Shown: positions 1 through 265 of the stretch, piece after piece | Layout of the letters: every line of letters begins with the position of its first letter | How positions within the stretch are numbered: the first letter of the stretch is position 1 | Source of the DNA: Escherichia coli | Lineage (GTDB): Bacteria > Pseudomonadota > Gammaproteobacteria > Enterobacterales > Enterobacteriaceae | Length of the DNA stretch: 265 bases | Direction: 5' to 3' (one strand) | Assembly (NCBI RefSeq): GCF_003334255.1 | Contig: NZ_QOWU01000274.1 | Position numbers and translations under genes: made by a program | Notes under the pieces: generated by a model | What the model was told of the DNA's origin: nothing | Database searches by the model: none | What the model saw: only the letters and a program-made list of their open reading frames with translations

Positions 1-265
1 GAACTTCTTAACATGCTGGATATTAAAGGAAAAATCATCACAACTGATGCGATGGGTTGCCAGAAAGATATTGCAGAGAAGATACAAAAACAGGGAGGTG
101 ATTATTTATTCGCGGTAAAAGGAAACCAGGGGCGGCTAAATAAAGCCTTTGAGGAAAAATTTCCGCTGAAAGAATTAAATAATCCAGAGCATGACAGTTA
201 CGCAATGAGTGAAAAGAGTCACGGCAGAGAAGAAATCCGTCTTCATATTGTTTGCGATGTCCCTG
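1..265 (+). CDS. ISAs1-family DDE transposase (H-repeat-associated protein, ISEc1-like), internal fragment, partial at both ends
   Basis: Seen in sequence: frame 1 (codons at 1-3, 4-6, ...) is open across the entire window, 88 codons with no stop. The other two + frames are interrupted (TAA at 9-11 in frame 3; TAA at 116-118 in frame 2). All three - strand frames contain stops (for example, forward TTA at 106-108 is a TAA on the reverse strand). Translation: [88 protein letters not shown]. Established knowledge, recalled from memory and not verified by search: this matches the central portion of E. coli H-repeat-associated ISAs1-family transposases (YhhI/YdcC/YbfD/YbfL paralogs). The specific paralog cannot be assigned from 265 bp, so no gene symbol is given. 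True start and stop codons lie outside the window. Confidence 0.85.
1..265 (+). mobile_element. Internal portion of an ISAs1-family insertion sequence (H-rpt / ISEc1-like); element termini are not in the window
   Basis: Inference from the CDS identity: ISAs1-family elements are about 1.2-1.4 kb and carry a single transposase ORF filling most of the element. The window lies entirely inside that ORF, so no inverted repeats or target-site duplications can be seen. The 40% GC (106/265 by hand count) is consistent with a horizontally acquired element in a roughly 51% GC enterobacterial host. Confidence 0.75.

Follow-up and report, generated by a model that had tools for sequence, protein, structure and literature searches.

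An ISEc1 (H-repeat) transposase gene fragment of Escherichia coli carries the probable second catalytic aspartate of a Tn5-like DDE triad

Introduction

The DDE transposases that serve best for comparison here are those of Tn5 and Tn10. In Tn5 (IS50), D97/D188/E326 are the metal ligands, as established by the synaptic-complex structures 1MUH/1MUS; in IS10 (Tn10), Bolland and Kleckner are said to have found in 1996 that D97/D161/E292 are catalytic. Members of the ISAs1 family, as catalogued by ISfinder, are elements of ~1.2-1.5 kb with one ORF and terminal inverted repeats starting CAGGG; a short, direct target duplication of 8-10 bp flanks them. ISAs1, IS1358 and ISPmar4 are members reported to transpose. 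To our knowledge, no transposase of the ISAs1 family has been studied by mutation or biochemically, and the literature searched yielded neither such a test nor a published DDE assignment for ISAs1. Tn10 and Tn5 have the YREK motif in common as well as the DDE triad (PMC2705183). Set around the catalytic Glu as Y-(2)-R-(3)-E-(6)-K, this motif defines the IS4 family (PMC2266710). In E. coli, transposition of the H-repeat has reportedly never been observed (PMC3032704).

The stretch of E. coli DNA analysed here is 265 nucleotides long and is called the window throughout. An earlier note, made from its letters alone, had proposed an ISAs1/IS4-like DDE transposase with a candidate second catalytic Asp in the motif ITTDAMGCQ. 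With a probability of about 0.92, we read the window as an internal piece of the sole transposase gene of ISEc1, the 1,291-bp 'H-repeat' of E. coli, and its D172 as the second carboxylate of D109-D172-E306 in a Tn5-like DDE transposase of RNase-H fold. Such a residue is nothing new: it belongs to an ordinary, known class and lies in an annotated, extremely common E. coli insertion-sequence gene.

Results

Frame +1 is open across all 88 codons of the window (1..265, plus strand), and its translation alone matched Pfam DDE_Tnp_1 (PF01609) with an E-value of 2.3e-6 (query 2-76 to model 68-139). The 88 residues correspond to residues 157-244 of a 378-aa ISAs1-family / ISEc1 (H-repeat) transposase, and the flagged Asp, encoded by GAT at nt 46-48 as codon 16 of this frame, is D172. 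The codon thus lies where the earlier note had put it; of the range 40-63 given there for ITTDAMGCQ, the eight codons T-T-D-A-M-G-C-Q stand, with the first Ile just outside at nt 37-39. Other ORFs within the window are short and purely mechanical. The 55-codon, TTG-started ORF at 38-205 on the minus strand runs antisense to the transposase frame, shows no sign of a gene and is regarded as a mechanical by-product.

The window is 100% identical to L001:3001-3265, a locus of E. coli O157:H7 PV15-279 used as one example genome. The identical stretch is contained in a CDS of 1,137 nt (L001:2533-3669; 378 aa) annotated 'ISAs1 family transposase', with an RHS-repeat gene and a toxin-domain gene upstream and nfrB/nfrA downstream. 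Against NCBIfam NF033564 (transpos_ISAs1; cut-off 70) the whole protein scored 412.2 bits, with residues 29-344 spanning model positions 1-314 of 314. It contains the Pfam pair DDE_Tnp_1_assoc (PF13808) at 8-94 (E 2.4e-32) and DDE_Tnp_1 (PF01609) at 102-343 (E 3.1e-30). These matches bear out the ISAs1 family named in the earlier note, and NF033564 membership and the domain pair are held in common with ISAs1 of Aeromonas salmonicida, IS1358 of Vibrio cholerae and IS1548 of Streptococcus agalactiae.

The window DNA is likewise 100% identical to ISEc1, the H-repeat (H-rpt) of E. coli Rhs loci (yhhI, ydcC, ybfL/ybfD-type). Over its whole length the gene shows 97-100% identity to yhhI and ydcC genes, whose annotation reads 'ISAs1-like element ISEc1 family transposase', and the example locus adjoins an RHS-repeat gene. 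No material difference from ISEc1 was found; the window gene is a copy of that element. The element unit, L001:2389-3679, measures 1,291 bp, holds a single transposase ORF and ends in CAGGG at both termini, which lie outside the window; its inverted repeats match at 19 of the first 30 bases. No direct repeat, and so no target-site duplication, was found around this unit between the flanks TCGCACAGAGGC and CCTGCTCACCTC. Because this is a single old copy inside an Rhs-type locus, the duplication may have been lost, and its absence has no bearing on the identity of the protein.

Chromosomal DNA of thousands of complete E. coli genomes carries the window at 100% identity. Matches to the window DNA occurred in 5,314 of 5,426 such genomes (~98%) at a median of 4 places per genome, where the annotation read either 'ISAs1 family transposase' or else 'ISAs1-like element ISEc1/ISEc5 family transposase'. 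The whole gene was present in 5,343 of the 5,426 genomes (median 5 places, maximum 14) and is named yhhI or ydcC in K-12-type genomes; plasmids accounted for 25 of its 24,890 places. Such a near-universal, chromosome-bound spread is unusual for an insertion sequence.

Conservation was assessed among relatives drawn from 1.84 billion cluster representatives (50%-identity clusters), of which 29,562 matched the transposase at E<=0.001 and 12,719 at E<=1e-10. A family alignment was built from the query and 124 full-length representatives that are 35-54% identical to it (n=125). The D172 column holds D in 124/125 sequences and E in 1/125; the D109 column shows the same counts, and E306 is E in 125/125. 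The Asp, whose conservation the earlier note had made decisive for its reading, is therefore nearly invariant in the family, and the E. coli copy retains it, as the note had said. D172 opens the family signature D-A-M-G-C-Q (residues 172-177; window 46..63, plus strand), in which A173 is found in 124, M174 in 102, G175 in 113, C176 in 97 and Q177 in 121 of the 125 sequences. Further along the plus strand, at 100..129, strand β5 (D190-V195) leads into a K196-x-N198-Q199 motif, with K196 and N198 invariant (125/125), Y191 in 123/125 and Q199 in 101/125. Within H230-G231-R232-x-E234-x-R236, R232 and R236 are invariant, and conservation reaches 90% or more at H230, G231 and E234. Conserved acidic residues other than the triad comprise E151 (125/125), E234 (116/125), D190 (96/125), D314 (125/125), E319 and D320.

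The signatures common to the ISAs1 family run along the protein as DGK (D109), KSNEITAIP, T-x-D-A-M-G-C-Q (D172), K-x-N-Q, HGRxExR and HW-x-I/V-E-N-x-L-H-W-x-L-D (E306). Against this background the E. coli copy differs from other cluster representatives by its overall identity of only 35-54%, by T171, where 95/125 sequences carry Ile, and by F317V and N332L, which are unique to it. Residues 317 and 332 lie downstream of the window, in L001:2533-3669.

An AF2 model of the ISAs1 protein (pLDDT 95.1) was assigned secondary structure by DSSP, and Tn5 transposase was modelled likewise (AF2, pLDDT 90.5) for comparison of the order of elements. The Tn5 reference sequence was verified against PDB 3ecp, and its motif positions reproduce D97/D188/E326. 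An RNase-H-like catalytic fold is present in the ISAs1 model, and the two predicted chains run through the same succession of elements. Strand β1 spans 105-113 in ISAs1 (with D109) and 92-103 in Tn5 (with D97), followed by β2 (126-133; Tn5 122-133), β3 (138-145; 139-148) and helix α1 (148-161; 162-182). Strand β4 (168-171; Tn5 183-187) then delivers the second Asp, D172 in ISAs1 and D188 in Tn5, as the first residue after the strand in both models. Helix α2 (178-186; Tn5 193-202) and β5 (190-195; 206-210) precede a β-rich insertion (221-286; 233-302), and a long helix (292-316; 309-335) bears the Glu, E306 or E326. In ISAs1 the insertion strands, 221-229, 232-242, 259-271 and 274-286, lie between β5 and the E306 helix; the β-rich insertion domain of Tn5, with its strands at 233-302, is placed as in the ISAs1 model. 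Taken together, the model shows a DDE transposase domain of Tn5-like RNase-H fold in which the D109/D172/E306 triad is intact.

On the window itself, all on the plus strand, β4 occupies 34..45 (I168-I169-T170-T171, with V/I at 169 and T/S at 170 kept family-wide) and is followed at 46..48 by GAT, the codon of the putative second DDE-triad Asp in the N3 region. Helix α2 takes up 64..90, and the first two insertion-domain strands, within residues 221-242 and including the HGRxExR motif, take up 193..258. The earlier note had placed the Asp at the end of a β-strand, which agrees with the I-I-T-T strand directly before D172 and with Tn5 in the same arrangement. It had also placed the first Asp upstream of the window and the Glu downstream, and D109 indeed lies 48 residues before the window start and E306 62 residues past its end. 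Its view that the window covers the catalytic core stands in part: the window holds the end of α1, β4, D172, α2, β5, α3 and the first two insertion strands, and only one of the three catalytic residues.

The likeness to Tn5 did not extend to sequence. Tn5 (IS50; 1MUH/1MUS/1MM8) and ISAs1 are ~9-11% identical, with no detectable profile-profile match: hhalign of the ISAs1 profile against a 53-sequence Tn5/IS50 profile gave a probability below 1% and an off-register alignment in every form tried (full length, cores, local/global, low MAC threshold, and DSSP strings from both AF2 models). A 53-residue Tn5 fragment around D188 had no match in Pfam. Because the profile alignments failed and the Tn5 fragment found no Pfam match, the link between ISAs1 and Tn5 is one of structure and topology, not of sequence. 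The proteins differ in other respects as well. Locally, D-A-M-G-C-Q in ISAs1 stands against D-R-E-A-D in Tn5; the N-terminal domain of ISAs1 is DDE_Tnp_1_assoc, unlike that of Tn5; and the C-terminal dimerisation region of Tn5 is absent from ISAs1 (378 aa vs 476 aa).

A sequence bridge was obtained through IS10 and IS4. Fragments of 53 residues, each built with the candidate Asp at residue 11, were aligned to Pfam PF01609. The ISAs1 fragment (D172) aligned over query 4-40 to model 76-112, gapless by length (E 1.6e-4), the IS10 fragment (D161) over query 4-42 to 76-115 (E 6.9e-6) and the IS4 InsG fragment (D209) over query 4-45 to 76-115 (E 3.2e-4). The IS10 reference matches the transposase of plasmid R100 at 100% identity and has its motif positions at D97/D161/E292. 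Because all three alignments begin with query 4 at model 76, ISAs1 D172, IS10 D161 and IS4 D209 all fall on PF01609 position 83, on the assumption that the first seven aligned residues hold no indel; the IS10 and IS4 alignments each hold a small indel somewhere. The second-Asp regions of IS10 (Tn10) and IS4 therefore share PF01609 positions with D172. This is the Pfam comparison by which the earlier note had proposed to judge its candidate, and it does not put the catalytic Asp elsewhere. In the Glu region, both hhalign and hmmsearch aligned Y-R-L-R-W-Q-I-E of IS186 with R300-x-H-W-x-I-E306 of ISAs1.

The bridge does not make ISAs1 a member of the IS4 family. NCBIfam IS4_1 matched the ISAs1 protein weakly over residues 99-306 (E 6.4e-4), and on NF033592 the protein scored 18.9 bits against a cut-off of 115. 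Around E306, the places of the Y-(2)-R-(3)-E-(6)-K signature are taken in ISAs1 by I299, H302 and L313, as against Y319, R322 and K333 around E326 in Tn5. Lacking YREK and scoring far below the IS4 cut-off, ISAs1 forms a separate family.

No transposase turned up in PDB sequence searches, whether the query was the single protein or the 125-sequence profile, and the matches at E ~1 (CheY, histo-aspartic protease, RHS protein YenC2) were judged to be chance, the single-sequence match to CheY being weak at E 1.1-1.6. YenC2 (PDB 4igl/9c4k) is an RHS-repeat toxin whose residues 242-289 align with the ISAs1 profile as T-I-D-A-M-G-C-Q...L-K-G-N-Q at E ~1, touching window 40-129 (residues 170-199); the match, likewise attributed to chance, is noted only since H-repeats sit inside Rhs loci. 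Neither hhalign nor hmmsearch found anything against the single IS10 sequence, and with a single IS186 sequence only the C1 (Glu) region aligned. The match to IS4 InsG was weak: it pairs the first-Asp motifs IAIDGK and LAIDGV, but a ~4-bit alignment to InsG residues 171-207 then sets D172 opposite Ala. This last register pairs β4-α2-β5 of ISAs1 with a segment ending at IS4's own β4 and D209, and it was rejected as a slip of one β-α-β unit, given that IS4 D209 maps to PF01609 position 83. InsG homologues, sought as material for a bridging profile, offered too little depth for that use, nearly all of those retrieved being 67% identical or more.

Discussion

Near-invariance in the family, a predicted place directly after β4, and PF01609 position 83 in common with IS10 and IS4 make D172 very probably the second catalytic Asp (N3 region) of a DDE triad. 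If the Tn5 and Tn10 enzymes are a guide, two divalent metal ions would be bound between the three carboxylates and would promote hydrolysis at the CAGGG element ends, after which the 3'-OH ends would be transferred into target DNA. The second strand might be handled as in Tn5, possibly through a hairpin. In Tn5/Tn10, a sub-domain takes charge of the flipped base while the hairpin forms (PMC2705183), and the hairpin route appears plausible for ISAs1 because its β-rich insertion occupies the place of that sub-domain.

That the motif arose by chance in non-coding or misframed sequence has next to no probability. The open frame, the significant Pfam and NCBIfam matches, the 12,719 cluster representatives at E<=1e-10 and the position of the window inside an annotated CDS in thousands of genomes already refute it, and no observation was found in its favour. 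D172 could instead be kept for structure or DNA binding, with another acidic residue, for example E151, D190 or E234, as the second catalytic carboxylate. The other conserved acids listed above give this idea some substance; their positions speak against it, and we judge it very improbable. E151 is at the start of α1, E234 is inside the insertion domain, D314, E319 and D320 are C-terminal to E306, and none of these five is placed after β4; D190 is not well conserved and precedes β5. D172 alone stands at the canonical site, immediately behind β4, and no other of these acids shares the Pfam model position of IS10 D161 and IS4 D209.

A separate question concerns present-day function rather than residue identity. 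D172 may be the DDE Asp by descent and yet belong to an H-repeat copy that is now immobile in E. coli, whether fixed, decaying or domesticated, the Asp having been kept through recent common ancestry or through a DNA-processing role other than transposition. The failure to observe H-repeat transposition (PMC3032704) fits such a state, as do the minute plasmid-borne share and the missing target-site duplication. Of 85 positions with family conservation of 80% or more, the copy also departs from the conserved residue at 8, and F317V and N332L, unique among the 125 sequences, together with the never-seen transposition put the activity of the copy in question. Against immobility stand the full-length ORF of 378 aa, the intact triad and other invariant residues, the terminal inverted repeats with their CAGGG ends, and a copy number (median 5, up to 14 places per genome) that implies past multiplication. 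On balance we consider an immobile copy unlikely, though well within the range of serious possibilities. Much further removed is the idea that the near-universal, almost wholly chromosomal ISEc1/H-repeat genes, which often adjoin Rhs toxin loci, are not a selfish IS but are kept as a working DDE nuclease or recombinase with a host role, such as the rearrangement of Rhs C-terminal tips; were this highly doubtful proposal true, the intact D109-D172-E306 triad would serve that role.

Under the preferred reading, an ISEc1 transposase fragment with a DDE Asp at D172, the value of the analysis lies mostly in correct annotation: the window belongs to the catalytic domain of a known ISAs1-family transposase and keeps the middle triad residue. 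A modestly useful product is the explicit assignment of the ISAs1-family triad as D109/D172/E306 in ISEc1 numbering. Together with the high-confidence Tn5-like model, the triad supplies mutagenesis targets for the question of H-repeat activity.

Two regions outside the window are also strongly conserved. Downstream, the Glu region (residues 299-314; L001:3427-3474) contains invariant H302, W303, E306, H310 and D314 in the consensus I/V-R-x-H-W-x-I/V-E-N-x-L-H-W-x-L-D. Upstream, K148-S-N150-E151 (L001:2974-2985), at the N-terminus of helix α1, shows little or no variation across the ISAs1 family. The Tn5/IS50 group carries an invariant K160-E161-S162-x-K164-W165 at the matching structural place, and the two motifs may represent a common feature near the active site.
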